DNA of 32,000 nt from Nostoc sp. PCC 7120 = FACHB-418 (GCF_000009705.1 NC_003272.1:390001-422000); one strand, 5' to 3'. Shown: positions 15,302-32,000, counted from the first letter of the stretch. The notes: generated by a model not told the origin, from the letters alone. Translations and numbers: made by a program.

Positions 15302-18300
15302 ATGCTTAGTGTTCCCGGTTATGCGATTAGCGAAGAACTTTATAATGGTTCGAGAACCCTAGTTTATCGAGCCGTTAGAGAAGTAGACTGCTTACCAGTG
15401 GTAATTAAACTGCTGAAGAATCATTATCCCAGCTTTTCCGAACTGGTACAATTTCGCAATCAATACACCATTGCCAAAAATCTCGACTATCCCGGAATCA
15501 TCAAAACCTATAGCCTAGAACCCTTACAGAATGGCTATCAGTTAGTGATGGAAGACTTTGGCGGAATTTCTGTGAAGGATTATTTCGCCAATAATAATGT
15601 TGCGTCTTTAGAGAAATTTTTACAAATAGCGATCGCACTATGCGACATCTTAGACATACTATATCGTGAGCGCATTATTCATAAAGATATTAAACCTGCC
15701 AATATTCTCATTAACCCGAAAACGACACAGGTTAAATTAATTGACTTTAGTATTGCCTCCTTACTCCCACGGGAAACTCAAACTTTAATCAATCCCAACG
15801 TTTTGGAAGGGACATTAGGTTATATTTCTCCCGAACAAACTGGAAGGATGAATCGGGGGATTGACTATCGCACTGATTTTTATTCCTTGGGGGCAACTTT
15901 TTACGAACTATTGACAGGAACATTACCATTCCCGTCAGAGGATGCGATGGAGTTGGTACATTGTCATCTGGCAAAAGCCGCAACCTTAGTACATGAAACT
16001 AATACAACAATTCCATCTGTACTCTCAGACATTGTTAATAAACTCATGGCGAAAAATGCTGAAGACCGCTATCAAAGTGCATTAGGTCTGAAGTATGATT
16101 TAGAAAAATGCTTACTCCAACTGCAAGAAACAGGTAAAATCGAGAGTTTCCCAATTGCTCAGAGGGATGTTTGCGATCGCTTCATGATTCCTGATAAATT
16201 ATATGGACGAGAAGCCGAAGTAGAAACCCTACTCCAAGCATTTGAGCGCGTCAGTACGGGGAAAACCGAAATGATGCTGGTAGCTGGGTTTTCGGGTATT
16301 GGGAAAACTGCTGTAGTTAACGAAGTTCATAAACCCATTGTTCGGCAACGGGGTTATTTCATTAAAGGCAAATATGACCAATTTCAGCGTAATATTCCCT
16401 TCAGTGCCTTTGTACAAGCATTCCGGGATTTAATGGGGCAGTTGTTGACAGAAAGCGACGCTCAAATCCAGCAATGGAAAAGTCAGATATTAGCAGCCGT
16501 TGGTGAGAACGGACAGGTAATTATTGAAGTCATCCCCGAATTAGCAGGAATTATTGGTCAACAACCTCCAATCATAGAACTATCAGGAACGGCTGCCCAA
16601 AATCGGTTTAATCTATTATTTCAGAAATTTGTCCAGGTATTCAAAACTCAGGAACATCCCTTAGTGATGTTTTTAGATGATTTGCAATGGGCAGATTCCG
16701 CATCTCTCAACTTGATGCAGTTGTTGATGAGTGAATCAGGAGGGGGATATTTATTATTAATTGGGGCTTATCGAGATAATGAAGTTACCGATGCCCATCC
16801 ATTGATGTTCAGTTTGGCAGAAATTAGAAAAGCCCAAGCCACCATCAATACTATTACCCTTGCGCCCCTCAGTCACTCTAGTTTAAATCAACTGGTGGCA
16901 GATACCCTGAGTTGTTCATCGGCAATTGCCCAACCATTAACTCAATTGGTATATCAAAAAACCAAGGGAAACCCATTTTTCAGCACCCAATTTATTAAAG
17001 CAATATATGAAGATGGACTGATTACATTTAATGGGGATGAGGGAAATTGGCAGTGCGATATTGTGGGAGTTAAACAGTCATCCCTTGCCGATGATGTTGT
17101 TGAATTCATGGCATTGCAGTTACGGAAATTGCCACAGACAACACAGAATATTTTAAAATTTGCAGCGTGTATAGGAAATAAATTTGATTTAGGAATATTG
17201 GCGATTATTTGGGAAAAATCATTAACTGAAACCGCTACAGCCTTATGGAAAGCATTACAAGAAGGACTGATTTTACCCCAGAGTGAAGTTTATAAATTTT
17301 ATGTCGATAGGGAAATACAGGATGAAGTCAAAGGTTCCCAGACAGTTACCTACAAATTTCTACATGATCGCGTCCAGCAAGCAGCATACTCATTGATTCC
17401 CGTAGAACAAAAGCAGTATACCCATTTCCAGATTGGTCAATTGCTGTTGCAAGGGTTATCTCAAGGGGAACAAGAAGAACGGATTTTTGACATTGTCAAC
17501 CAGTTGAATATGGGGCTAGATGTCATCACCAGCAATGAGCAGAAACAAGAACTGGCGCATCTCAATTTAAAAGCTGGACAAAAAGCCAAACTCTCAGCCG
17601 CCTATCAAGCTGCTTACGAGTATTGTACCATTGGGATGAGTCTATTATCCCCAGATGCTTGGCAGCAAGACTATCCACTCATCTACAGTTTGCACCGTGA
17701 TGCTTCAGAAGCCGCTTATCTTTGTGGTAAATTTGACCAAGCCGAAGCCTTGTATGCAGAAACACTCACCTATGCTCAAGCTCCCCTTGACCAAGCCATA
17801 ATTTATCGCATACAGATGACACAATATCAGCTTCAGGGACGAAATGCTGAGGCGATCGCTATTCAACGTCAAAGTTTACAGATGTTGGGATGGACGATGC
17901 CCACACAACCGGAGATGATACAAGCTGGCCTAGATGACGAAATCGCCACAGTCCAACAATTTCTAGAGCAGCATACCATTGAATCCATCCTTGCAGTCCC
18001 CAAAATGACAGACCCCAGCATTGCAGAAATGCTGCGGATTTTACAAATTCTGTTCTACGCCGCCTGGCTCGATGGTCAAAGCACCTTAGCCCTCCTAGCA
18101 ATCGCCAAGATGACCACACTGTCATTAGAGTATGGTAATAGCGATATGTCTCCCTTTGGTTATGCCGGCTATGGCTTAATTGCTAATGGTGTATTCAAAG
18201 ACTGCGCTACTGCTTATCGGTTTGGGGAAATGGCAGTACAACTTTGTGAACAATTTGATAATGCTGATGTGCGAGGGATGACGAATTTCCTTTTTGCAGC

Positions 18301-20716
18301 TGATGTGCATAGTTGGAGTCGTCCCATACAAGAGGCAGATACATACTATAACAACGCCTACCAATATGGGATGGAAGCGGGAAACTGGCTAACAGTGGGC
18401 TTCATGATGATGCAGAGTGGTTCTGATCGCCTAACCTATGGTAAACATTTAGATGATCTGTATGCGATCGCTCAAAACCATGCAGCTTTTCTTCATCATA
18501 TCAAAAGCTTAGATAACCTAGATGCTTTAACAGCAGGAGTTATTCAACCAATTCGCCATCTTTTGGGGTTAACAAAAACACCCTTCACCTTTGATGATGA
18601 CAGTTTTAGTGAAGCTGAATATTTGCAAAAATATGCCAATGCTCCCTATCACTTGTCTTGGTTATATTCCGTTAAAATTCGCCATGCTTATTTATTTGAC
18701 CAAAAATCCACCTACTCTGATTTAATTCCCCAACTGAGCATGATTGAAAACACTATTTCCAGCCATGCAAAAGTCCCTTCCAGCGTTTTTTATGTGGCAT
18801 TAATGCACCTAGCTCTAGGTGAAACTGCTACCGAAGAATCTCAGCGTCAACACCATTGGCAAGCACTCCTCCCCCTAGAAGCAAGCTTAAAGCGTTGGGC
18901 AAAAGCTTGTCCAGAAAATATCCGGCACAAGTTTCTCCTCATTCAAGCCGAAAAAGCCCGGATTAAAAAACAAAAAACCAAGGCCATTGAACTTTATGAG
19001 CAAGCAATTAGCCAAGCTCAAGCAAATCAGTATGGCTACGAAGAAGCCTTAGCTAACGAACTTGCAGCTAAATTCTATCTCGACTGGGGTAAAGTAAAAA
19101 TTGCCCAAGTATATATGCAGGAAGCCTGCTACGGCTACGCCCGTTGGGGAGCCAAAGCCAAAGTTAATTACCTAGAAAAAACCTATCCCCAACTCCTCAA
19201 ACCTATTCTGCAACAGCAACGGATCAACTTCAACCCCTTAGAAACTATTACCTTTCGTGCAGCTACTTCATCCACTCACACTTCTACTACTAGTAGCACA
19301 AATATTTCCGAGATTCTGGACTTTACCTCTGTCCTCAAAGGCGCTCAAGCTATCTCTAGCTGTATTGAATTAGACGAACTCATTGCCAACCTCACCAGAA
19401 TTATCCTCGAAAACTCCGGCGCAAAAAAATCTGTACTCATTCTTCCCCAAGAAGACACTTGGCAAGTTAAGGCAATTACCTCGATTAATCAAGAGTCAAG
19501 TTCTCACACTAATATACAAACTATCCTGTCCTCACAATCAATAGACGATTGTCAAGATATTCCCGAAAAAATTATCAATTACGTGAAAAATACCCAGAAA
19601 ATCCTGATTATAGACAATTGCCAAACAGATATTCCTGGGGTAATTGGGGAATATATGCTACAGCATCAGCCAAAAAGTGTATTATGCACACCAATTATTA
19701 ATCAAGGGCATTTAGTGGGGATTCTCTACTTAGAAAATGAACTCACAAGTGAAGTATTTAATAGCGAACATCTGCAAGTAGTTAATCTACTTTCTTCCCA
19801 AGCAGCAATATCACTAGAAAATGCCAGACTTTATCAAAAAGCCCAACAAGCATTACAAGATTTACAACAAGCCCAATTACAAATTGTCCAAAGTGAAAAA
19901 ATGTCAGCACTGGGTAATTTAGTCGCTGGGGTAGCCCATGAAATGAATAATCCCTTGGGTTTTATTGCTGCTAGTCTGATACAAGCCCAACCAATCATAG
20001 CTGATATTACCGAACACTTAAAGCTCTATCAAGAGACTTTACCCAGCAAGACTAAGGAAATCAAAGACCATGCTGAAGAAATTGACTTGGAATATAGTTT
20101 AGAAGATTTGCCAAAAATGATTGAGTCGATGACAATGGCTTGTGAAAGACTCCAAAATATTAGTACTAGTCTTTGCACTTTCTCCCGTGCCGATAGAGAT
20201 TATAAAGTACCATTCAATATTCATGAAGGTATTGATAGTACAATTCTAATTTTAAAGCATCGTCTCAAAGCTAACGAACAACGTCCAGCGATTGAAGTAG
20301 TAAAAGAATATGCTGATTCACCCATGATTGAATGCTTTCCAGGGCAAATAAATCAGGTATTTATGAATATTATAGCCAATGCTATTGATGCCTTAGATGA
20401 GGCAAATATGGGACATAGTTTTGCAGAAATTCAAGCAAATCCCAACAAGATAACAATTAGAACCTTGCTAGAAGATAACCAAGTACAAATTATCATTGCT
20501 GATAATGGTAAGGGCATGAGCGAAGAAGTTAAAGCCAAGATATTTGACCACTTATTTACTACCAAAATGGTAGGAAAAGGAACGGGATTAGGACTGGCTA
20601 TAGCTCAGTCTATTGTGGTAGAAAAACATAGCGGAACACTGGGAGTAAATTCTACCCTTGGTAAAGGAACTGAATTTGTCATCACCTTACCAATTCTGGA
20701 TGAGGCTCAAAATTAG
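15302..20716 (+). CDS. Multidomain Hanks Ser/Thr kinase - AAA_16/STAND ATPase - helical repeats - GAF - histidine kinase (HstK-type)
   Basis: 1804 aa. Kinase motifs are HKDIKPANILI, DFS and SPEQ. The P-loop is GFSGIGKT and Walker B is VMFLDDLQWAD. A GAF-like region sits near LVGILYLEN. The H-box is VAHEMNNPL, the N-box NIIANAIDAL, G1 DNGKGM and G2 GTGLGL. Confidence 0.9.
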   Translation: MLSVPGYAISEELYNGSRTLVYRAVREVDCLPVVIKLLKNHYPSFSELVQFRNQYTIAKNLDYPGIIKTYSLEPLQNGYQLVMEDFGGISVKDYFANNNVASLEKFLQIAIALCDILDILYRERIIHKDIKPANILINPKTTQVKLIDFSIASLLPRETQTLINPNVLEGTLGYISPEQTGRMNRGIDYRTDFYSLGATFYELLTGTLPFPSEDAMELVHCHLAKAATLVHETNTTIPSVLSDIVNKLMAKNAEDRYQSALGLKYDLEKCLLQLQETGKIESFPIAQRDVCDRFMIPDKLYGREAEVETLLQAFERVSTGKTEMMLVAGFSGIGKTAVVNEVHKPIVRQRGYFIKGKYDQFQRNIPFSAFVQAFRDLMGQLLTESDAQIQQWKSQILAAVGENGQVIIEVIPELAGIIGQQPPIIELSGTAAQNRFNLLFQKFVQVFKTQEHPLVMFLDDLQWADSASLNLMQLLMSESGGGYLLLIGAYRDNEVTDAHPLMFSLAEIRKAQATINTITLAPLSHSSLNQLVADTLSCSSAIAQPLTQLVYQKTKGNPFFSTQFIKAIYEDGLITFNGDEGNWQCDIVGVKQSSLADDVVEFMALQLRKLPQTTQNILKFAACIGNKFDLGILAIIWEKSLTETATALWKALQEGLILPQSEVYKFYVDREIQDEVKGSQTVTYKFLHDRVQQAAYSLIPVEQKQYTHFQIGQLLLQGLSQGEQEERIFDIVNQLNMGLDVITSNEQKQELAHLNLKAGQKAKLSAAYQAAYEYCTIGMSLLSPDAWQQDYPLIYSLHRDASEAAYLCGKFDQAEALYAETLTYAQAPLDQAIIYRIQMTQYQLQGRNAEAIAIQRQSLQMLGWTMPTQPEMIQAGLDDEIATVQQFLEQHTIESILAVPKMTDPSIAEMLRILQILFYAAWLDGQSTLALLAIAKMTTLSLEYGNSDMSPFGYAGYGLIANGVFKDCATAYRFGEMAVQLCEQFDNADVRGMTNFLFAADVHSWSRPIQEADTYYNNAYQYGMEAGNWLTVGFMMMQSGSDRLTYGKHLDDLYAIAQNHAAFLHHIKSLDNLDALTAGVIQPIRHLLGLTKTPFTFDDDSFSEAEYLQKYANAPYHLSWLYSVKIRHAYLFDQKSTYSDLIPQLSMIENTISSHAKVPSSVFYVALMHLALGETATEESQRQHHWQALLPLEASLKRWAKACPENIRHKFLLIQAEKARIKKQKTKAIELYEQAISQAQANQYGYEEALANELAAKFYLDWGKVKIAQVYMQEACYGYARWGAKAKVNYLEKTYPQLLKPILQQQRINFNPLETITFRAATSSTHTSTTSSTNISEILDFTSVLKGAQAISSCIELDELIANLTRIILENSGAKKSVLILPQEDTWQVKAITSINQESSSHTNIQTILSSQSIDDCQDIPEKIINYVKNTQKILIIDNCQTDIPGVIGEYMLQHQPKSVLCTPIINQGHLVGILYLENELTSEVFNSEHLQVVNLLSSQAAISLENARLYQKAQQALQDLQQAQLQIVQSEKMSALGNLVAGVAHEMNNPLGFIAASLIQAQPIIADITEHLKLYQETLPSKTKEIKDHAEEIDLEYSLEDLPKMIESMTMACERLQNISTSLCTFSRADRDYKVPFNIHEGIDSTILILKHRLKANEQRPAIEVVKEYADSPMIECFPGQINQVFMNIIANAIDALDEANMGHSFAEIQANPNKITIRTLLEDNQVQIIIADNGKGMSEEVKAKIFDHLFTTKMVGKGTGLGLAIAQSIVVEKHSGTLGVNSTLGKGTEFVITLPILDEAQN

Positions 20717-20924: not shown

Positions 20925-21992
20925 TTACCTTGATGCTTTGGTGCGTAGTTGTCCACAAGCAGCATCAGCCTCTAAACCACGAGAATAGCGGACACTCACC
21001 GCAATATGTTGTTGCTGAAGCACTGTGAGGAAAGCTTGAATACGATCGCCACTAGGGCGTTTATAATCAACTTCATCAATAGAATTATAAGGAATCAAGT
21101 TGACGTGATTTTGAAAGCCCCGCAGATGCTTTGATAGTTCTAAAGCGTGTTCTGGCAAATCGTTAACACCAGCCAGCAGGATATATTCAAAAGAAATCCG
21201 TCTTCCTGTGATAGCTACATATTCTCGACATTCAGCCAGCAAATCCTCGATGTGATAAGAGCGAGCGCTGGGAATGAGTTGTTCCCGCAGTGCTTGGTTA
21301 GGGGCGTGGAGACTCACCGCCAGAGTCACTTGTAAATGGTGTTCGGCTAATTCACTAATGCGATCGCGTATCCCTACAGTAGATAAAGTGAGCGATCGCT
21401 GTCCAATACCCACATCTTGATTTAAGCTTCTCAGTCCAGCCAAAACATTCTCAGTATTTAACAACGGTTCACCCATCCCCATGAAGACAACATGACTCAC
21501 CCGTTGCTGAAAATCTTCTTGGACAGTAAGAACTTGATCAACAATTTCATGTCTTTCTAGGTTGCGTTTGTAGCCACCCTTACCAGTAGCGCAGAAATCG
21601 CAAGCCATCGGACAACCCACTTGGGTAGAGACGCAGACAGTCAACCGCTTGTCTGTAGGGATACCCACAGCTTCCACAATTTCACCATCGCTTAGTTGTA
21701 GGAGATATTTTACAGTCCCATCCGATGCTACAGACCGATGGTGAATGGTAGAACGTCCAATGGGGACATCTGCAACAGCAGCCCGCCATTGTTTAGAGAA
21801 TACAGAGATATCAGTGAGCGATCGCACTCCCTTGTGATAAATCCAATCATGCAGCTGCTTACCCCTATAAGCAGGTTGTCCTTGCTGCTGCACCCAACTA
21901 GTTAACTCCGTGACTGAAGCGCCGAGCAGAGGGGAACAAGGTTGTTGTGGCTGAGATGATGGAGTTAGCTGGGTGACAGGCGTAGCAGACAT
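20925..21992 (-). CDS. rlmN: 23S rRNA/tRNA (adenine-C2)-methyltransferase, radical SAM
   Basis: Radical-SAM cluster motif [11 protein letters not shown], plus [10 protein letters not shown] and the C-terminal conserved Cys (DAACGQL). Confidence 0.95.
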
Positions 21993-22532
21993 AAGAAATC
22001 ACAAATTAATTCTGAATCTCTATCCTACAACTTTCAAAGGAAGTTAGTGGCGATGTTCAAACTTCAAAAGAAGTGCATTTTTCTGCATAGGCATCGAATT
22101 CTGGTTTTTATAGAATTAAGTGGATACCTTGCCTATTTGGATTTCTGTTCGCACAGCGTAGCGTAGCCATACTTACTTGCGTAGTTAAGACGTGGAAAGG
22201 GAAAGAGAGCAAGGAATACGAGTGGGGGGAATTTTCTGGCACACATCAAGTTACCCTAACAAAGATCAAATAGGTGTGTGATGAGACGAGTCATTGTTTT
22301 TGAATAAATATATTCTTAACATTTTGTGTATTGAGTACCATATATACTATTTGCAATGAAACTATTAGTAAAAGCACTTACATGGATACAAGGTTTAAAC
22401 ACGAACGACTTACAAGCTCCAAATAGAGACTTTAACTATATAAAACTCCAAACTTTAACAACTAATACCAGTGAGCCTAATTTTGAATATACACAGATAA
22501 TCAAACAGTTGATTACCGATAAAGAGATAAGT

Positions 22533-23216
22533 ATGGTTAGTGTTGATCAATTGATAATGACCCAAGAATCATCCACACTGGAAATTTTAGTTGTTGATGA
22601 CCACCAGTTAATTTTAAGCGGAACGCTGAATGTACTACAGCAACAATATCCAGAAGCAGCGATCGCCACAGCCAAAACAGTAGTTGAGGCGCTGACACAG
22701 ATGAGAAATTCTGCCTTTGATTTGATTGTCATGGATTTATCGATACCCGAAAAATCTGGGGCGATCGCCTATATTGATACAGGTATCAATTTGCTACAAC
22801 AGTTAATCAAGGAATATCCCCAACAGAATTTTTTGGTACAAAGTAGTTATGTCAAAGCTTTGGTCAGGATTAAACACGAAATTGATGAGCATCAAGGTGG
22901 ATTTGCGATCGCTGATAAAGGACTATGCGAATCTGAGATGATAGTTCGTGCTAATTTAGCACTACAAGGTGCAACCCACACCAAAGACATCAAAACCGGA
23001 CTGGAACTGAAGCCAGAATGGTTAGAAGTGCTGAAATTAGCTTTTGAAGAAGGCTTGACAGATATAGCAATCTGCAAACGGATTCACAGATCCGAGCGCG
23101 CTGTGCGTACCTACTGGACGAAGATTCAAGATGTACTTGGTATTTATCCAGAACCAGGAAAAAATATGCGTATTCAAACTGAAATCCGCGCTCGACAAGA
23201 AGGATTAATTGATTAG
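22533..23216 (+). CDS. NarL/LuxR-type response regulator (REC + C-terminal HTH)
   Basis: REC motifs are ILVVDDHQL and DLIVMDLSIPE. The LuxR-like HTH is EWLEVLKLAFEEGLTDIAICKRIHRSERAVRTYWTKIQDVLGI. The track ORF starts at 22356, but its first 59 aa look non-homologous, so I prefer the ATG at 22533 or 22557. Confidence 0.75.
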   Translation: MVSVDQLIMTQESSTLEILVVDDHQLILSGTLNVLQQQYPEAAIATAKTVVEALTQMRNSAFDLIVMDLSIPEKSGAIAYIDTGINLLQQLIKEYPQQNFLVQSSYVKALVRIKHEIDEHQGGFAIADKGLCESEMIVRANLALQGATHTKDIKTGLELKPEWLEVLKLAFEEGLTDIAICKRIHRSERAVRTYWTKIQDVLGIYPEPGKNMRIQTEIRARQEGLID

Positions 23217-23236
23217 TCATTAGTTATTGCTGACTT

Positions 23237-25137
23237 ATGTTCCGGCTTAATACAAGAAAAATTAAGCAAGAAATTATCATTTTGCGACAGGTAGCAATAC
23301 CTGGAATGACCGTTTTATTTATTATAATAATTGCCAGATTATCTGGATTATTGCAGGGCTTAGAATTGATATTATTCGATACTTTTCTGCGGTTGCGTCC
23401 AGCCGAAGTGTCTGACCCAGAAATAGTAATTGTCGGAATTAATGAAAATGACATTCGTAGTTTAGGAACTTACCCAATTCCAGATTTAGAAATTGCTTCA
23501 CTGATTCAAAAAATACAGAATTACAAACCCGCAGTGATTGGGCTTGATATTGTCAAAAATGTCCCAACAGAACCAGGACATCAAGAACTTACTCAAGTAT
23601 TCCAACAATATCAAAACCTGATTGGTATTGAAAAAGTTTTACCACCTGACGAATTTTCTCCACCACCAAACCTACCACCAACACAAATAGGTTTTTCTGA
23701 TGTAATAGCAGATAGAGATGGTAACTATCGTCGCTATTTACTTTTGACCGCCTCACTCCAAAATCCCCAAAATCCCCAAGATGACAAATATTCCCTAGCC
23801 CTGAGATTAGCACAAGCTTATCTAGCTACTAAGAATATCATTATAGACACAGGTAAATATAATTCTTATATTCGATTTGCTAATACAGAACTGCCTATAT
23901 TTTCTGCAAATACTGGTGGATATGTAGGAGAAAATGATACTGGCTTAAAAATGCTAGTGAATTTTCGCAGTGGTAAACAACCATTTCGATTTATTTCTCT
24001 AAATGATATTAAAAATAATAAATTCAACTCAAATTGGCTCAAGCAAAAAATAATCATCATTGGTGTAACTGCTGCTAGTAGTAATGATTTATTTAATACT
24101 TCAGCAACTGCTAGCTCAAAAATTTATGAACAAATTTATGGAGTCGAATTTCATGCTCATGTTGCTTCACAAATAATTAATGCAGTTCTCAATGGTAGAC
24201 CGTTATTACAAGTTTGGTCTGATGGTTGGGAATATTTATGGATAATGAATTGGGGAGTGATAGCAATAGCTATTGCCAGAGTGACAAAGACTTTTCGCAG
24301 AAATTTATTAGCTATTACACTAATAATATTTGGCTTAATAAGTATCAGCTACTTACTCATCTTATTAGGTTGGTGGATTCCCCTAGTACCGACTTTACTA
24401 ATTTTAGGAATTAACGGTTTGGGAATCAGTGTCTTCGCTTTTCATGAATATAGACAAGGTCAAATAAAAATACAGCTAAGTCAACACACTATAGAGCATA
24501 CGTTTACACTTATTCATAATGGCCCATTACAGACTTTAGCTAATATATTGAGGCAGGTAGGTACAGACAACTTACAAAATGATCAATTAATATTGCAGTT
24601 AGAAAAACTTAATTCTGAAATTCGCTCTATCGGTGAGTATTTAAGAATCGAAGCATTAACTCCTAATGAAAGCTTGCGCTTAGGTAGCCGTGTCAAAATT
24701 GATTTAAAAAGACCAATCCATGAATTATTTTACGAAGTATATACAAGTACTATTGCCAGAGACGATTTAGAATATTTCTATAATATTAACGTCAAAGTCC
24801 GCACATTTGAGCCTATAGATGAAAAGTACTTAAATATAGAAAAAAACAAGAGTTATGTCTATTTTTAGAAGAAGCTTTATGTAATGTGGGAAAACACGCC
24901 AAAGGTGTTAAGAGAATCGAAGCTATTGGCAAGACAGAACGAAGTTTATATACTTTGATGATTAAAGACAATGGTTGTGGATTCACTTCATTGTCTGAAA
25001 ATAAAGGGATGAAGCAACTTAGAAATATTGCTAAAAAACTGGGAGGAAATTTTAGGTGTGAATCCCTTGATCCCAAGGGGACAATCTGTGAAGTTACATG
25101 GAAATTAACAAACAATAAGAAAAACTATCTGAATTAG
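23237..25137 (+). pseudogene. CHASE2-domain sensor histidine kinase (HisKA_3-type), reading frame interrupted at an A7 run
   Basis: ORF 23237..24868 holds a TM helix, a CHASE2-like ectodomain (IVIVGINENDI, IGLDIV, FSDV..DRDGNYRRY, IIIIGVTAAS), 3 TM helices and an H-region (LIHNGPLQTLA). ORF 24886..25137 holds G1 (DNGCGF) and G2-like motifs. The frame of the second ORF is open from 24823 and reads KKQELCLFLEEALCNVGKHA (N-box) across the junction. One nucleotude shift at 24840-24846 joins them. Confidence 0.75.
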
Positions 25138-25380
25138 ATTTGATTATTGAAAATATTTAGGTATCTGTAGGTTGGGCATTGCCACCATACGTATATTTTG
25201 GCACTCAAGTATAAATCCTATATCATTATGATTTTGGTAAGCAATACTCACTTTCTATAAATCAACAAATAACAGAAATTGCTATTAAATTAGTAAAATT
25301 CACATAAATATGGTAAGATTTCACTTCTTATAGACAGAAATTTCTCCCTGTTGATCAAATTGATAACTTAGAGAAGGCAA

Positions 25381-26127
25381 ATGTCAAAAAATTTTAGCTT
25401 CACTATCAACCCCAGACTAGTAACTAGTGCTAGTCTTGGCTTATTGCTGTTTCTGACACCAGTTGCAGTGACAGCTTCTCCATCATCTAATCGCCGCCAA
25501 CCTGCAAGCGACTATAGCAGAAGCGCGGGTAAACGAGGTTGTCCCAATGACTCCAGTGAAACCATACCTCTGACAGTACTTGCACCACAGACTTATGTTG
25601 GATACACAACAGAGTTACGTCCTACTTTTGTAGGGTTTGTCTCTAGTCCTCAGAAAGTAGAGTTGCGGATTTTTGAATTTACTTCAGACAAGGAAGTTAA
25701 ACAGCTAGGTAATGCCGTACACAAAGATGTCAAATCAGGTATATTTCCAATACCCTTACCTGAAGACAATCCTGATTTAACTATAGGTAAGAAATACCTT
25801 TGGCAGTTATCGATGAGATGTTCTGGGGTGAACATAGTCGAAGCAGCAGAATTTATTGTTGTAGAAATGTCATCTACACTCAAAAGTAAATTACCCAGTG
25901 CAGCAAATGGTTTACAAAAAGCTAATATCTTTGCTGAAGAAGATTTGTGGTATGACGCATTGAATGAGGCTTTAAAGTTAGCCAATAATGGCAAACTAGG
26001 CGATTTAGGTGCAAACATAGTTAAAAGCTTTGCTAAACATGAATCCCCAAAGCCTACAGAGATTGAAAAATTAGTCCAAAAGAGAATACAATTTCTACAT
26101 AAAATCGCAGATCAAGAAAAAAATTGA
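25381..26127 (+). CDS. Secreted DUF928-family protein
   Basis: Signal peptide (LGLLLFLTPVAVTASP), then the family-typical layout: GKRGCP.., IPLTVLAPQTYVGYTTELRPTFVGFV, VELRIFEF, GIFPIPLPE, GKKYLWQLSMRC. GAGAAGG precedes the ATG. Confidence 0.75.
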   Translation: MSKNFSFTINPRLVTSASLGLLLFLTPVAVTASPSSNRRQPASDYSRSAGKRGCPNDSSETIPLTVLAPQTYVGYTTELRPTFVGFVSSPQKVELRIFEFTSDKEVKQLGNAVHKDVKSGIFPIPLPEDNPDLTIGKKYLWQLSMRCSGVNIVEAAEFIVVEMSSTLKSKLPSAANGLQKANIFAEEDLWYDALNEALKLANNGKLGDLGANIVKSFAKHESPKPTEIEKLVQKRIQFLHKIADQEKN

Positions 26128-26330
26128 GTTAAATTCTGTGTTGAAATACCTTGCTTTTGAGAGGAGTTGGCGGTACTAGTTGAATGAGAACTTCTCAGCA
26201 GTCCCAATGAAAAATTTCACAGTCATAGATGAAAGATATCTTTCCCCTAGACCCTTACACCCCTACACAATCTTTCAAGCTAGAGGTAAATAAACTATGA
26301 AAGACTACACTTAGTTTTGACTATTCCTGC

Positions 26331-28983
26331 TCAAAGCCAATTTCCTATGAGGATAAATGCTGACCAATAGTATGGATGGTCATATTTGTCATTAATTTCT
26401 GGTATTTGTTTGGCATTGATTAGTTTTAACTGTGCTGCTTGTAAGGCTTGTGCTTTACTCATTCCTGCATTGCGTAACTTATCATAAAACTCGGCAATTA
26501 AGTTGGCTGTAGAGTCATCGTCTACAGGCCATAGTGAAGCTAAGGCGCTTTTTGTCCCAGCTTGCAATGCTACACCAGCTAAACCTAGTGTAGCGCGATC
26601 GTCACCTGTAGCTGTTTCACAAGCCGTTAATGTTAATAGTTCCACAGCATTAGAAATATTACCAGCTTGGCGCAGTATGGTTTCTAGTTTGTCAATGGTG
26701 AGCTTTTCATTATTACCTATTACCAGAAACGTATCTTCTGGGATAATACCGAACTGTGCATGGGTCGCAATATGAATAATGGGATAAGTTTTTTCTTGAA
26801 TTTCCTTTTTTAAGTTGTGGATAGCAAACTCTTCATTTTCTAATTTTTTACTTTCAGGAAATATTTTTTTAATAGCCGTATATTCTATAGGGAAATATGC
26901 AAGTTCAGGAAAAACCTTGTTATCAATTTTACTTTCTTGACTCAAAGCTAAAACTAAAGCACGATTGACTTGTGAGCTTAACGGTTTTAAGTCGGTCAAT
27001 TGTAAACTAGAAGTTGTGGCAACAGCATATTTTTCAGTTAAATACCTGCTTTCTTTTTTGTCGTAAAGTGCAGCCATTGGGACATCACGCAAGAAACCAT
27101 CTTGAATAAAAACTAAAGTTTTAATTCTTTGTTCGGTTAAATATTTTTCAATTGGACTAATGATTGCATCATAAATATTTTCGGCATCTTTCGTACTGTA
27201 GTTGATAGTCTGTTGCGCTAGTAAACTATTACGGAATTGAAATATTTCCTGACGCAACATTTCTTGATTTTTATTCTCTACCCAATGTAAATACTCTTGT
27301 TGATTGGGTAGACTGAGTAAAATTCCTATTTTATCTTTAAAAATAATTGAACTAATCACCGCAGTATCTTTTTCTATGACTTGATGCAGTGAGTTATTGT
27401 TCAAAGCTGCTAAAATACAATCATTACCAAAATAATTTTGGATTTCTGCTTGTCGGAGGGAATTGATAGTAGTCAACGCACTATTTAGTTGTTGATTTCG
27501 CCTTACACTATCTTGATTATTAGATGTAGCTAGTTCTAGCTGAAGTTGTGCTAGTTGTCGGTAGACAGGCTCAACAACATCGCGGAAATCAAATTGAAAA
27601 TCACGGTTTGTAGTTAAAATATCACTGCGTAGTTCTTCTAGTGTTTTATAAGCTCTTTCATAAAAAGAGAGTGCTTGATTAAATTGCTTTTGTGCTGCTA
27701 GAATCCTGCCCGCTTGCCACTCCCACAAATATAAACTGTCTTTTGCTTGCAAATTTTGATCAGCGAACCAAATAGCCTGATTAGTTAATTCCCAAGCAGA
27801 TTTATACGCTTTCTGGCATTCATATAAATGTCCTAATTCTCCCAGAGCATAAGATGTAGATCGGGCATCTTGTAACTTTTGGGCAGTTTTAATGGCTTGA
27901 TTAAAAAGCTGCTTAACTTGTACTTCCGGCAATCTTGTTTGTTGGTAGCATTGATTTATGGATGCAGTGAATTCATCATTAATACTAGGTAAGTTAGCCA
28001 ATTCAATTTCAGCATATACTTTGTTAATTGAATCTGGTAGTTGCTCAATGAGAGCTAAAGCTTGTTGGATATTTGTCTCAATTTGCTTTGGATTGAAAAT
28101 ATTAATGTCTATAGTTCGATAAGCAAGTTTGATTAAATTTATATGGCTACGTAGTTCAGCAATTTGATTATTTTCTTTAGCTGCTACCCCAATACTTTTT
28201 TGCAAAGAATTTATGGCTGTTATATAATCATCTTTAGAACGTTGTACAAACTCATTCTCTTTAGAAGAGTTATGATTTTGAGCAGATTTAGCGCGTAAAT
28301 TCCAAAGTTGGGCGCGGCTAGCGTAAGCATTAGCTAAACTGTTGAGGATAGCAAAGTTGTCGGTTTGATTTTGGCTATTGCTGACAGTCTCTAGATATTT
28401 AATTGATAAATCATAATTACCTTGCAGACGGTGGGCTTCTCCTAAACTTCCTAAGGCTGCAATCTCTCCTGATTTATCTTGTTGTTCCTGGGCAATTTGT
28501 AATGCACTCCCTGTTTGACAAGTTAATGTATTTACACCACATAAAAGACTGATAGCTTTTTTTTGTTTGTCCTGAATTACTATAAATTTGTGCTATTTCA
28601 GTGAGAATCCTTCCGACTTTTTGCAAATTTTTTTGAGAGTGATAATAATCTTTTACCTTTTCCCAATAACTCAAGGTTAAGCTTTTATTACCTAACTGCT
28701 GATAAGTTCTAGCTAAATTTTCGTTAATGATTGCTATATTACGAAAGTCATTGTTTTTTTGATAAGAATCTAAAGCAGCTTCCCAAGGTTTAATCGCTGC
28801 ATGAAAATCTCCTTTTTTATAGCTTTCAATACCCTGATTAACAAGTTTATAAGCATCAGGAGTTTGAGCATTTACTATAGCTACTGGATGAGAATTACCG
28901 AAACATATACAGAGTATGAGGCTGGTACTAAATAGGGTTGCTAGCCAAGAATAAAAAAATGATTTAAAAATTTTACTAAACAC
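26331..28983 (-). pseudogene. Exported TPR-repeat CHAT-domain (caspase-like) protease, reading frame interrupted at an A8 run
   Basis: The N-terminal ORF 28474..28983 holds a signal peptide plus TPRs. The C-terminal frame (track 26331..28205, with an artificial TTG start) is open up to about 28585 and reads ..QTKKAISLLCGVNTLTCQTGSALQIAQEQQDKSGEIAALGSLGEAHRLQGNYD.. A +1 shift in the A8 run (T8 on + at 28557-28564) joins them into about 884 aa. CHAT motifs are IIHIATHAQFG, LLTLTACETATGD and HPYYWSAFILIGNW. Confidence 0.75.
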
Positions 28984-29057
28984 GTATGTTTATTGATAGA
29001 TGTAGGATTCGTTTGCTATTTATTTTAATGGAAAAATAGATACAGCACTTTGCGCGA

Positions 29058-29711
29058 CTAACTGGTACAGTAGCAACAGTGAGAAAAGTAGTTTTGGAGT
29101 TGCTGACTTGAGCATAAGAGAACTCCTAGTGACAACAGTTGTACTACTGCCAAAATATTTTTTGGTGAAAACTTGCGGATAAATGCTTTGAGTTGCCACC
29201 AGAGATGTTCTATGGGGTTAAATTCAGGTGAATAAGGTGATAAATAAACTACCCTTGCGCCTACGGACTCGATCATTTCAATAATCCCCTTCATTTTATG
29301 TGCTTTGAGATTATCCATGACCACTACTGCCCCTTTCCACAATTTCGGTAATAGCTCTTGTTCCACAAATTTTTTGAAGTCTTCTCCATTCATTGATGGC
29401 CCTAATGTTTTGAGGGAGAGGATTGATTTGTTAGTAATAGCCCCCACTACGGTAACTCTGCTTCCACGGTAAAATGGTTTGACATCATAAACTCTGTCTC
29501 CCTTTTTACTTCTGCCCATTCCTCTCGTTAATCCGAGTAATACGCCCATTTCATCTACAAAAACTAGGTCATCTGCAACAATATCTCGGACGCTTTCCCA
29601 GTAAGAAAGCCTTTTATTTTGTGTAATTTCTGTTCCTGCTTGACTACTTCGTACTGTTTTTTTTGAGGGTGAGCTTCTGTTTCTGAAGAAATCTGCACAT
29701 TGCACTCTCAC
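29058..29711 (-). CDS. IS630-family transposase, DDE catalytic part (orfB, +1 frame relative to orfA)
   Basis: The DD(35)E-type triad context is VFVDEMG, VVVMDNLKAHK, YSPEFNPIEHLW. It overlaps orfA across the A8 run at 29657-29664. Confidence 0.8.
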   Translation of the reverse strand: MRVQCADFFRNRSSPSKKTVRSSQAGTEITQNKRLSYWESVRDIVADDLVFVDEMGVLLGLTRGMGRSKKGDRVYDVKPFYRGSRVTVVGAITNKSILSLKTLGPSMNGEDFKKFVEQELLPKLWKGAVVVMDNLKAHKMKGIIEMIESVGARVVYLSPYSPEFNPIEHLWWQLKAFIRKFSPKNILAVVQLLSLGVLLCSSQQLQNYFSHCCYCTS

Positions 29712-30003
29712 TTAACCTTACCCCTGTCTTTTCTTCCCAATACTCACAGTATTCGGCTAGGGTATAGTCTAGATGTTCTGCTACCATTTGCTCTATCTGT
29801 TGTTCATAACCAGATACTTGGCTTGGTTTTCCTCCTGTCGCTACACTTGGCTCTAGCGTCCCTTTTTCTCGTTTTCGCTTCACGAGGTTTTGTACTGTAT
29901 TTTTACTTACCTTGAATCTTTCTGCTACTTTGCGAATAGATGTATTTCCCGCTTCGTAAACGCTAATAATTTTTGAGCGCAGGTCTACTGAGTAGGGTTT
30001 CAT
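29644..30003 (-). CDS. IS630-family transposase, N-terminal HTH part (orfA)
   Basis: MKPYSVDLRSKIISVYEAGNTSIRKVAERFKVSKNTVQNLVKR is a paired-like HTH. The ORF ends just after the A8 run. Confidence 0.8.
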   Translation of the reverse strand: MKPYSVDLRSKIISVYEAGNTSIRKVAERFKVSKNTVQNLVKRKREKGTLEPSVATGGKPSQVSGYEQQIEQMVAEHLDYTLAEYCEYWEEKTGVRLSESAMCRFLQKQKLTLKKNSTK

Positions 30004-30061
30004 CTGATTTTTTACTTTTATCTTCTCAACTACTGTACCAAACCGTTAGACAAAGTGCTGT

Positions 30062-30107
30062 AATCACTAACATAGAAGCTGGTAATTTTCCCCTTATGTT
30101 AGTGATT
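30062..30107 (-). terminator. 13-bp perfect hairpin downstream of the RTX gene, abutting the IS630 end
   Basis: AATCACTAACATA, 20-nt loop, TATGTTAGTGATT. The T-rich tract expected after it on the minus strand (TATCTATTTTTCC) now lies on the far side of the IS, at 29028-29042. Confidence 0.45.
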
Positions 30108-30123
30108 TACTTGCCATAAATCC

Positions 30124-32000
30124 CTAAGCAACAACGAGAATATCTGCATTGGTCAAGGACAGTCCAGTATTGAGGGTAGCAAATTGAACTTTAGCGATCG
30201 CACCCGTGCCATCCTGATCAAAGAAGAGAGCGCCGTTGTTTCGGTCGTAGAGGAATCGGTGGCTAGCAGTAGTGGCGGCTGAACCTAGTAAAAACTGACT
30301 AGATGCGATCGCCGCACCTACAACCAACCCGCCACCAAAGCCAGCCGCAGAGACAACAATAGTGTCATCAACCACGTTAAAATCGGTAATTCTGTCGATA
30401 CCTTCACTACGAGAATTGAATGTAAAGCGATCGCGTCCTACACCCCCTGTTAGTGTATCGTTACCAGTACCACCAACGAGGATGTCATTACCGTTACCAC
30501 CAAGGAGAGTATCAACACCTGCACTACCATTAAGAGTATCATTGCCATCTCCACCATTTAGGGTATTGTTGCCACTGTTACCTGTAATGACGTTGTTAAG
30601 ACGGTTACCTGTACCATTGATTGCAGATGTACCTGTGAGAGTCAAATTCTCTAAACTATTGCCTAATGTATAGCTGATAGATGACTGAACTAAGTCTGTA
30701 CCTTGGTTGGCATTTTCCAAAACGTAGTCGCCTATACTATCAACAATGTAGGTGTCGTTACCTCCGCCACCAAGCATCGTATCATTGCCTGTACCACCAT
30801 TGAGAATGTCATTACCATTGCCAGCAATCAGGAAATCATTACCAGCATCGCCATTGAGGGTATTATTGCCACTGTTGCCAGTGATCGTATTGTTGAGACT
30901 GTTACCTGTACCGTTGATTGCACCCGTACCAGTCAGAGTCAAATTTTCTACATTCGCGCCCAGAGTATAAGTAACAGATGACTGAACTGTGTCTATACCT
31001 TCGTTAGCGTTTTCCGTAACGATATCCCCAGTGCTATTGACTATATATGTGTCGTTACCTCTACCACCCCTGAGCGTATCGTTACCTACTCCGCCATCGA
31101 GAGTATCATTACCCCTACCACCATGCAAAACGTTAGCAGCACTATTACCGATAATTGTGTCATTACCATCACCACCAAAAGCATTTTCGATTGTAGTTCC
31201 CGTACTGATAGTTAAGACGGTTCCATTGAGGATACTTGTAGACCCTGGATTTAGGTTGAGGTAAGAGTCAGCAGTAATCGCCGCCGCATTAATCGTGTCA
31301 GTACCTGAACTATCGGTTAGTGTCGTTGAGCCATAAAAACCATACTCATTGGTGTAGAAATAAGTGTCATTGATAGTATCAGCATCGCCGTATAAATTTA
31401 ATTTCCAACTATTAAAAATGCCGATATCTGAGGGGCCTAAATCTTGTATTGTCAGTGTCCAATTGCCAGCGCTGGTTTCTCCCCAGTGTTGCGTACTGGA
31501 GAGTTTAAACACAATATTGTCTCCCTCATCTTCCTTATTACCAGGTTGATGAACCAAAACACTCTGAACCCCACTCGGAGAAGTCAGGTAAACAACTATA
31601 TCACCCCGATAAGGATGAGTCAGATTAAGTTCTACTTCTACCCAGTCAATTTCTAAGCCAGCCGCCACCGTAAAAGTGTGACTAATTCCTGCCTCATCGT
31701 TATCAGGAACAGTCAAACCTAGATTACCTGAACTGTAAGAAAGAGACTGCTCGTTGTTGAATCGGCTCTGTTTTTGCCAAGTCTCAGCCAAACGCACAGC
31801 AGCAAGCGCATCTACCAAACCGAACCCATAATCATGGCTGACGTGTAAACCCCCACCATTAAAATTGTTAGCACCGTTAATTTGCCAAATGTAATTTCCC
31901 CCTACGTTATAGAAATCATTCTGGCGGGCGGAATAGGCGAGAATTTCTTGTATGTCTCGATAACCTAAATTCCGATTGGCTTCCAGCATTAAGGCGACTA
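30124..32000 (-). CDS. Kexin/subtilisin-like S8 peptidase (C-terminal part) - P-domain - RTX calcium-binding repeat exoprotein; 5' end outside window
   Basis: The frame is open to the window edge. HDYGFGLVDALAAV marks the end of the S8 domain. The P-domain is HPYRGDIVVYLTSPSGVQSVL..WGETSAGNWTLTIQD. Many GGxGNDxL nonapeptides follow, then the tail DRITDF..RFLYDRNNGALFFDQDG. Confidence 0.85.
   Translation of the reverse strand, partial: VALMLEANRNLGYRDIQEILAYSARQNDFYNVGGNYIWQINGANNFNGGGLHVSHDYGFGLVDALAAVRLAETWQKQSRFNNEQSLSYSSGNLGLTVPDNDEAGISHTFTVAAGLEIDWVEVELNLTHPYRGDIVVYLTSPSGVQSVLVHQPGNKEDEGDNIVFKLSSTQHWGETSAGNWTLTIQDLGPSDIGIFNSWKLNLYGDADTINDTYFYTNEYGFYGSTTLTDSSGTDTINAAAITADSYLNLNPGSTSILNGTVLTISTGTTIENAFGGDGNDTIIGNSAANVLHGGRGNDTLDGGVGNDTLRGGRGNDTYIVNSTGDIVTENANEGIDTVQSSVTYTLGANVENLTLTGTGAINGTGNSLNNTITGNSGNNTLNGDAGNDFLIAGNGNDILNGGTGNDTMLGGGGNDTYIVDSIGDYVLENANQGTDLVQSSISYTLGNSLENLTLTGTSAINGTGNRLNNVITGNSGNNTLNGGDGNDTLNGSAGVDTLLGGNGNDILVGGTGNDTLTGGVGRDRFTFNSRSEGIDRITDFNVVDDTIVVSAAGFGGGLVVGAAIASSQFLLGSAATTASHRFLYDRNNGALFFDQDGTGAIAKVQFATLNTGLSLTNADILVVA
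30480..31073 (-). repeat. Two tandem ~297-bp (99-codon) modules inside the RTX region (boundaries approximate)
   Basis: Sequence at 30661-30720 aligns with 30958-31017, and 30541-30600 with 30838-30897, at roughly three quarters identity by eye. The protein modules are GNDTYIV(N/D)S.GD.V.ENA..G.D.VQSS..YTLG...ENLTLTGT.AINGTGN.LNN.ITGNSGNNTLNG. Confidence 0.7.

Follow-up and report, generated by a model that had tools for sequence, protein, structure and literature searches.

A CHASE2 sensor and DUF928 at the core of a candidate cell-envelope module in Nostoc sp. PCC 7120 and related cyanobacteria

The extracytoplasmic sensor domain CHASE2 was defined in 2003 and is widespread, and its signal is still described as unknown (PMC5192318). 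A locus on the chromosome of Nostoc (Anabaena) sp. PCC 7120, in which a CHASE2 kinase is encoded next to a small exported protein of the family DUF928 and a putative exported protease, raises the question of whether these genes form one signalling system and, if so, which protein is the partner of the sensor. The genes, alr0356 to all0361, lie within a stretch of 32,000 nucleotides (the window, from whose first letter all unprefixed positions are counted) and were placed by protein identity to BAB72314, BAB72315, BAB72317, BAB72318 (all0360) and BAB72319. An initial annotation, made from the sequence of the window alone, had described four adjacent genes; an open reading frame (ORF) listing and Pfam searches confirm them at the coordinates given there, and Pfam and family profiles uphold the domain calls. 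They encode a NarL/LuxR-class response regulator (alr0356, 22356..23216, + strand; Response_reg, E = 2e-10), a CHASE2 sensor histidine kinase (alr0357 plus alr0358, 23237..25137, + strand; CHASE2, E = 2.6e-68), a predicted exported DUF928 protein (alr0359, 25381..26127, + strand; PF06051, E = 1.8e-30) and, convergent to the latter, a predicted exported TPR-CHAT caspase-fold protease (all0360 plus all0361, 26331..28983, − strand; CHAT, PF12770, E = 1.7e-72, plus TPR matches). On balance, we favour the reading that the locus encodes a cell-envelope module, in which CHASE2 and DUF928 would form the core, a NarL-type regulator the output, and exported proteases a further part, in the context of type Vb secretion.

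Conservation of the gene neighbourhood

An alignment of DUF928 proteins was scanned against one genome per species, which yielded 80 loci with DUF928 identities of 38–91%. The ORFs around them were called in six frames and classified by iterative profiles and all-against-all clustering, with cluster representatives checked by Pfam. Counts were limited to loci flanked by 9 kb or more (56 upstream and 57 downstream of DUF928), presence being judged within 10 kb. A CHASE2 kinase gene lies upstream of DUF928 in 55/56 loci (downstream in 4/57) and a response regulator gene in 54/56 (downstream in 0/57), both on the strand of DUF928. The most common neighbour after these two is a gene for a large exoprotein with a two-partner secretion (TPS) domain, found downstream in 46/57 loci (81%) and upstream in 4/56, followed by TPR-CHAT (downstream in 31/57, upstream in 1/56) and a ShlB/POTRA_2 transporter (downstream in 22/57, upstream in 0/56). 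The upstream/downstream asymmetry gives Fisher p values of 7e-11 for CHAT and 2e-16 for TPS. When the DUF928 proteins were collapsed at 70% identity, CHASE2 was retained in 14/14 groups, the regulator in 13/14, CHAT in 9/11, TPS in 8/11 and ShlB in 5/11.

The linkage extends to divergent family members and is recovered from the side of the protease. At the loci of four of the most distant retrievable DUF928 proteins (26–33% identity), a CHASE2 gene adjoins DUF928 in all four, TPR-CHAT is present at three (at the third through a profile match to a gene that lies at the end of a contig and lacks annotation) and TPS at two. In the reverse search, an alignment of the exported TPR-CHAT subfamily was scanned against metagenome contigs and gave 80 loci with identities of 31–61%; among the 23 flanked by 4 kb or more on each side, DUF928 is present at 20, CHASE2 at 19, TPS at 20 and ShlB at 14. 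The neighbourhood of CHAT, DUF928 and CHASE2, which the initial annotation had suggested for other cyanobacterial genomes, is thus real and strongly non-random in both directions of search.

The same adjacency might be explained without any functional coupling, as synteny inherited in a few cyanobacterial lineages rich in CHAT, CHASE2 and TPS genes. Most loci do come from Nostocales, and flanking ABC transporter and MoxR/DUF4350 clusters are also syntenic within sub-lineages. We consider this explanation very improbable. The pair survives a fall of DUF928 identity to 26–33%, occurs in other orders as well, and tolerates both a rearranged gene order and a change of output domain; the lineage-specific housekeeping neighbours (ABC transporter, MoxR/DUF4350, hydrolase) change between groups while the module stays; and the position of CHAT is strongly biased to the downstream side (31/57 versus 1/56). 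The CHASE2–DUF928 pair is the essentially invariant core of the module and TPR-CHAT a frequent accessory, because a CHAT gene is lacking within 10 kb downstream at 26/57 DUF928 loci, while the pair is near-invariant and persists where the CHASE2 protein carries an output other than a kinase.

Five CHASE2 output types are found directly followed by DUF928, a histidine kinase being the output at most loci. A Pkinase-CHASE2 gene precedes DUF928 at locus L163 and a CHASE2-cyclase gene at L149. Two loci have fusions in which an N-terminal CHAT domain is joined to CHASE2 (L166:14534-16894 and L169:19543-21921, both − strand), again followed by DUF928, and these loci hold a separate exported TPR-CHAT gene plus TPS genes. 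The CHAT domain of the fusions should be cytoplasmic, because it precedes the first transmembrane segment, and in these two cases the sensor appears to have a caspase-fold protease as its cytoplasmic output. A metacaspase-CHASE2 fusion has been listed for Trichodesmium (PMC2853523). The fifth type, CHASE2 without a recognisable output, precedes DUF928 at L087 and L088, beside partner-switching genes. That DUF928 follows CHASE2 whatever the output is the strongest argument that its functional partner is the CHASE2 domain itself. In sum, the account of the module in the initial annotation had the genes and their linkage right; it missed the independence of DUF928 from the CHASE2 output, as well as the two-partner secretion context described below.

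Two further observations concern the output domains. L087 (1500-9196, on a contig of GCA_965188575.1) combines the most distant DUF928 protein (26% identity) with the output-less CHASE2, and its flanks encode a STAS anti-anti-sigma factor, a HATPase_c_2 anti-sigma kinase and a SpoIIE phosphatase. Several Nostoc loci have extra Ser/Thr kinase genes within 10 kb of the module, none with an adjacent DUF928 gene of its own: L046:1388-3583 (+ strand) is a confirmed CHASE2-Pkinase fusion, L007:16891-18699 (+ strand) has a Pfam match to the kinase domain only, and L058:1670-3865 (+ strand) is a further putative Ser/Thr kinase gene.

The encoded proteins and the state of the PCC 7120 copy

The kinase gene begins 20 nt past the regulator gene on the same strand. 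Homologues of the regulator are ~225 aa long and their consensus begins at an internal methionine of the PCC 7120 protein (M60, at 22533), which is therefore probably the true start. Pfam finds no LuxR/NarL-type output domain in alr0356 alone; the assignment to this class is supported by GerE matches in 20/44 homologues and by the family profile, which aligns over its full length with NarL-family EvgA and with its N-terminal part only with DevR and NarL. In the kinase, the CHASE2 (PF05226) profile covers residues 27–344. A hydropathy scan marks a segment at 13–31 before CHASE2 and, after it, one peak within a hydrophobic block of ~70 residues (~331–403), which is read from the sequence as three predicted transmembrane helices. 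This layout, together with the positively charged N-terminus, would place CHASE2 outside the cytoplasm. The Pfam HisKA_3 model matched none of 43 kinase homologues. The family has an invariant H-box, IHNGPLQ, which is similar to the hHDxxxQ motif. The HATPase_c match of the single kinase protein is weak (E = 0.018), and the family profile aligns with the ATPase domains of DosT and VraS at 6e-5 to 8e-5 and with those of NarQ and UhpB at 3e-6, DevS also being among the nearest kinases. Judged by these profile alignments, the ATPase domain is nearest to those of the HisKA_3-class kinases DosT, VraS, DevS, NarQ and UhpB.

In the DUF928 protein, alignment and hydropathy reveal a hydrophobic signal sequence at the N-terminus, and two of its cysteines are near-invariant. 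Its AlphaFold model (pLDDT, the per-residue confidence score, 82.5) comprises a signal helix, a disordered N-terminal stretch, a β-sandwich (residues ~62–160) and a C-terminal helical bundle. The disordered stretch, which contains the conserved motif PASDYSRSAGKRGC in alr0359, is the best-conserved part of the subfamily (P[AP]SDY[ST][RK][ST][GA]GxRGC); the wider DUF928 family keeps G-x-R-G-C only. Across loci the motif does not track the presence of CHAT: G-x-R-G-C is kept at L087, where no CHAT gene is seen, and SDY is variable at CHAT-adjacent loci. The family comprises 3639 clusters at 50% identity, and the best 150 of these 3639 clusters are stand-alone proteins of 143–384 aa, mostly ~250 aa.

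The TPR-CHAT protein is predicted to be an exported caspase-fold protease with an intact His/Cys dyad. The motifs HIATHAQF and LTACETA, noted in the initial annotation, are present in the CHAT domain, and their His and Cys are invariant in 31/31 homologues. An N-terminal hydrophobic stretch is also kept in 31/31, followed in the TPR-CHAT N-termini listed by a (V/S)xA↓Q site. Signal sequences and hydropathy support, as a prediction, the proposal that the CHASE2 ectodomain, DUF928 and TPR-CHAT are all extracytoplasmic. Neither chance co-localisation, nor contradicted domain calls, nor a cytoplasmic CHAT protein, any of which would have spoken against the module as first proposed, was found.

Two of the four genes are split by frame breaks in the window, which had led to the suggestion that this copy may be inactive. 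Comparing the window base by base with five further assemblies from this strain group separates the two breaks. The kinase gene has a run of seven A at 24840-24846 in the window and of eight A in all five other assemblies (a deletion of 1 nt), where the kinase is intact at 633 aa; this break, peculiar to the assembly of the window, may stem from a private mutation or from faulty assembly. The CHAT gene has a run of eight T (one extra T) at 28557-28564 in the window and in three independent assemblies, and of seven T in two sister assemblies, in which TPR-CHAT is intact at 883 aa. This break is a real strain polymorphism of the PCC 7120 lineage. The suggestion of inactivity thus needs qualifying, as the CHAT break alone recurs across assemblies. 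The PCC 7120 copy is partly degenerate and sister strains have intact copies; all genes are intact in the close relatives Trichormus variabilis NIES-23 and ATCC 29413. The window has one further private difference, an A/G substitution at 21083 in rlmN relative to all five other assemblies, which, like the shortened A-run, looks like an error or mutation confined to this assembly. Upstream of the module, a gene for a multidomain protein of 1804 aa (Ser/Thr kinase, AAA_16, GAF and histidine kinase ATPase; 15302-20716, + strand) is set off from it by rlmN on the opposite strand, and no link of this protein to the module was seen at other loci.

Secretion context and candidate protease substrates

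The usual setting of the module is a two-partner (type Vb) secretion locus, in which the large, β-helical TPS-domain exoprotein (TpsA) is often encoded in one to three tandem copies, frequently together with its transporter TpsB. This genome has its TpsA genes a short way outside the window: past position 32000 (L173:1-5809 and L176:2023-7796), the S8 protease gene described below is followed by an ORF of 55 aa, by two TpsA genes in tandem (1152 aa and 1158 aa) and then by a gene for a calpain-like protease of 501 aa with PPC and Peptidase_C2 domains. In one lineage (L091:14535-19122 and L092:13168-17755), the genes directly past TPR-CHAT encode an export pair of the type I or bacteriocin type, made up of a cNMP-binding Peptidase_C39 ABC exporter with an HlyD-like adaptor.

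A second protease accompanies the module at some loci. The initial annotation had placed an RTX exoprotease next to the CHAT gene, separated by an insertion sequence, and this is confirmed by Pfam. An S8 subtilase gene with P-domain and RTX repeats (P_proprotein and HemolysinCabind matches) occupies 30124..32000 and beyond on the − strand, so that the C-terminal 621 of its 900 aa are encoded inside the window; Peptidase_S8 is matched on the full protein. The intervening IS630-family insertion sequence (29041..30062, − strand; DDE_3 and HTH_Tnp_IS630 matches) ends in inverted repeats of 33 nt and has an HTH ORF (29644-30003) that overlaps a DDE ORF (29058-29711). It is an interruption with no functional part in the module; the CHAT and S8 genes are ~200 nt apart in locus L007. 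S8 genes occur at 14/47 fully flanked DUF928 loci in varying positions, and the S8/RTX protease is a recurrent but facultative module member.

In the cell-envelope module that we favour, DUF928 would act as an extracytoplasmic partner of CHASE2, whether as co-sensor, presented ligand or inhibitor. The putative HisKA_3-class kinase would phosphorylate the adjacent NarL-type regulator, which may in turn control the neighbouring exoprotein and protease genes. Exported TPR-CHAT, plus the S8 protease where present, may act on the module's envelope proteins by maturation, release or degradation, and the CHASE2–DUF928 pair would report the state of the surface or secretion pathway back to the cytoplasm. 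TpsA would be the first-choice protease substrate, by analogy with FhaB, which is reportedly processed by the subtilisin-like SphB1 under BvgAS control, and with CdrA, for which LapG, a periplasmic cysteine protease controlled by LapD, is said to do the processing; DUF928 would come second. Like the present locus, those systems join TpsA/TpsB to an inner-membrane signalling protein and to a dedicated protease, which is of the S8 or the periplasmic cysteine type. The module differs from LapG/LapD in its CHAT fold, CHASE2 receptor and DUF928 accessory, and cleavage here would follow by analogy.

The initial annotation had proposed a different order of events, in which exported TPR-CHAT cleaves DUF928, or docks it through the TPRs, and thereby makes or destroys the CHASE2 signal, much as the kinases of ExoR and CpxP are controlled through proteolysis of these two proteins in the periplasm. 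The two genes are indeed usually immediate convergent neighbours: in the reverse search, DUF928 lies at most 1.2 kb downstream of TPR-CHAT in 36/57 loci and is convergent in 41/45, and in the forward search CHAT lies at most 450 nt from DUF928 in 19/34. Five DUF928 loci have CHAT in the absence of a neighbouring TPS gene, the dyad of CHAT shows no variation, and the disordered DUF928 motif contains an Asp and an Arg that make it a candidate cleavage or docking site. We nevertheless regard this proposal as doubtful, since almost half of the DUF928 loci (26/57) are without a CHAT gene within 10 kb, the N-terminal motif does not track CHAT, and TpsA accompanies TPR-CHAT as often as DUF928 does. 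With each of the two present at 20/23 TPR-CHAT loci, co-occurrence does not discriminate between them as substrates, and TpsA is an equally plausible substrate of the CHAT and S8 proteases.

Tandem TpsA paralogues, which are common, would also fit a conflict or competition locus, in which TpsA proteins are contact-dependent toxins or adhesins, the proteases (CHAT, S8, calpain-like) serve as effectors or in processing, and CHASE2–DUF928 is the switch. CHAT proteases are best known from defence systems, and the C39 ABC exporter near one locus type would suit such a role. Pfam scans of eight TpsA proteins, however, found no domain other than TPS and no toxin domain; PADLOC gave no meaningful match for any module protein; no immunity-like small genes were noted; and TPR-CHAT has a signal sequence, unlike the CHAT proteases known from defence. 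A conflict locus is, in our view, an improbable explanation.

Several observations weigh against the cell-envelope module as we read it. The evidence for its working is comparative throughout, and locus counts are non-independent because many loci come from related Nostocales, a problem that collapsing by identity reduces and does not wholly remove. About one fifth of the DUF928 loci have no TPS gene within 10 kb and, as noted above, five have CHAT without TPS, so the secretion link is frequent and not obligatory. In this genome, no TpsB (POTRA_2 plus ShlB barrel) was seen in the ~12 kb past the window. Cyanobacterial signal peptides may also target the thylakoid lumen, and the periplasmic placement of the exported proteins therefore depends on the secretion context. 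Searched against the PDB with Foldseek, the DUF928 model gave generic β-sandwich matches at E = 6e-4 or weaker, including CsgH, adhesin repeats and carbohydrate-binding modules, and no functional lead. Nor did a dyad search (5-mers, gaps of 0–10) of de-replicated 300-nt regions upstream of the regulator, DUF928, TPS, CHAT and ShlB genes reveal a shared regulator-binding dyad clearly above shuffles, the top matches being the cyanobacterial HIP1 palindrome and A/T runs.

A scan of the locus for promoters and terminators gave counts not above shuffled expectation. Upstream of alr0359, positions 25218-25236 (− strand) match the FurC (PerR) box exactly and overlap a promoter-like site at 25198-25226. 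This box has been reported as a prediction only, and is the one mention of the PCC 7120 locus tags found in the full-text literature (PMC10406281).

Relation to known systems and implications

The nearest precedent for the module is the CHASE2 kinase operon of Burkholderia, a betaproteobacterium, termed ‘BiofilmReg’, which encodes a regulator, an exported LysM-FecR protein, a CHASE2 kinase and DUF4136 (PMC5192318). There, as here, a CHASE2 kinase and a regulator are encoded with a small exported accessory protein. The accessory proteins differ (FecR/LysM in Burkholderia, DUF928 here) and show no Pfam cross-match; the Burkholderia regulator is OmpR/CreB-type and its kinase has PAS plus HisKA, in contrast to the NarL-type regulator and putative HisKA_3-class kinase here, and TPS or CHAT genes are not described for that operon. 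In Sinorhizobium meliloti, CyaK and CyaD1/D2, which are CHASE2 adenylate cyclases, sense a protein signal and need the outer-membrane β-barrel protein NsrA (PMC7529298, PMC13001267). This pathway resembles the module in its CHASE2 receptor, and a variant of the module with a CHASE2-cyclase and DUF928 exists (L149); DUF928, CHAT and TpsA are not reported for the NsrA pathway.

The logic of the proposal that TPR-CHAT acts on DUF928 is that of other envelope systems. ExoR with ExoS/ChvI and CpxP with CpxA are periplasmic inhibitor–kinase pairs controlled by proteolysis, in which a small exported protein modulates a kinase and is removed by an envelope protease; the ExoR and CpxP families are unrelated to DUF928. 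Among CHAT proteins, Csx29 of the type III-E CRISPR system (‘Craspase’) is a TPR-CHAT protease, and other CHAT proteases act in defence. Csx29 and the present protein share TPR plus CHAT, the caspase-like His/Cys dyad and the wiring of a protease into signalling; unlike Csx29, the TPR-CHAT protein here has a conserved signal sequence. A TPR-CHAT profile searched against the PDB matched TPR-repeat proteins only, and so gave no sequence support for a relationship to Csx29. Identity with a type III-E Craspase was rejected, as the signal sequence is conserved and the Pfam-annotated locus tables contain no Cas or CRISPR families. Identity with a known anti-phage defence system was likewise rejected, the module proteins giving generic receiver and TPR matches only in PADLOC.

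A search of the full-text literature found no description of DUF928 with CHASE2, CHAT or TPS, nor of the module. A sensor with an exported accessory protein is a known kind of module; its tie to a secretion locus and to envelope proteases is a variant absent from the literature searched. We tentatively suggest a broader view, which may well need revision, in which DUF928 is the cognate ligand or co-receptor of CHASE2 and, with exported TPR-CHAT and type Vb exoproteins, constitutes an unrecognised cyanobacterial surface signalling pathway with four read-outs, namely kinases of the histidine or the Ser/Thr type, a nucleotide cyclase, and an intracellular CHAT protease joined to CHASE2.

DUF928 is a concrete candidate partner for CHASE2 and makes the question of the CHASE2 signal testable; the one studied CHASE2 case, that of Sinorhizobium, points to a protein signal (PMC7529298). 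If the partnership proposed here is true, it would give a role to DUF928, a family of several thousand sequence clusters without an assigned role. The ties of the module to two-partner secretion and to an exported caspase-fold protease hint at a way in which filamentous cyanobacteria might couple the condition of their cell surface or secretion pathway to gene expression, and would widen the roles of CHAT proteases beyond cytoplasmic defence to the cell envelope.

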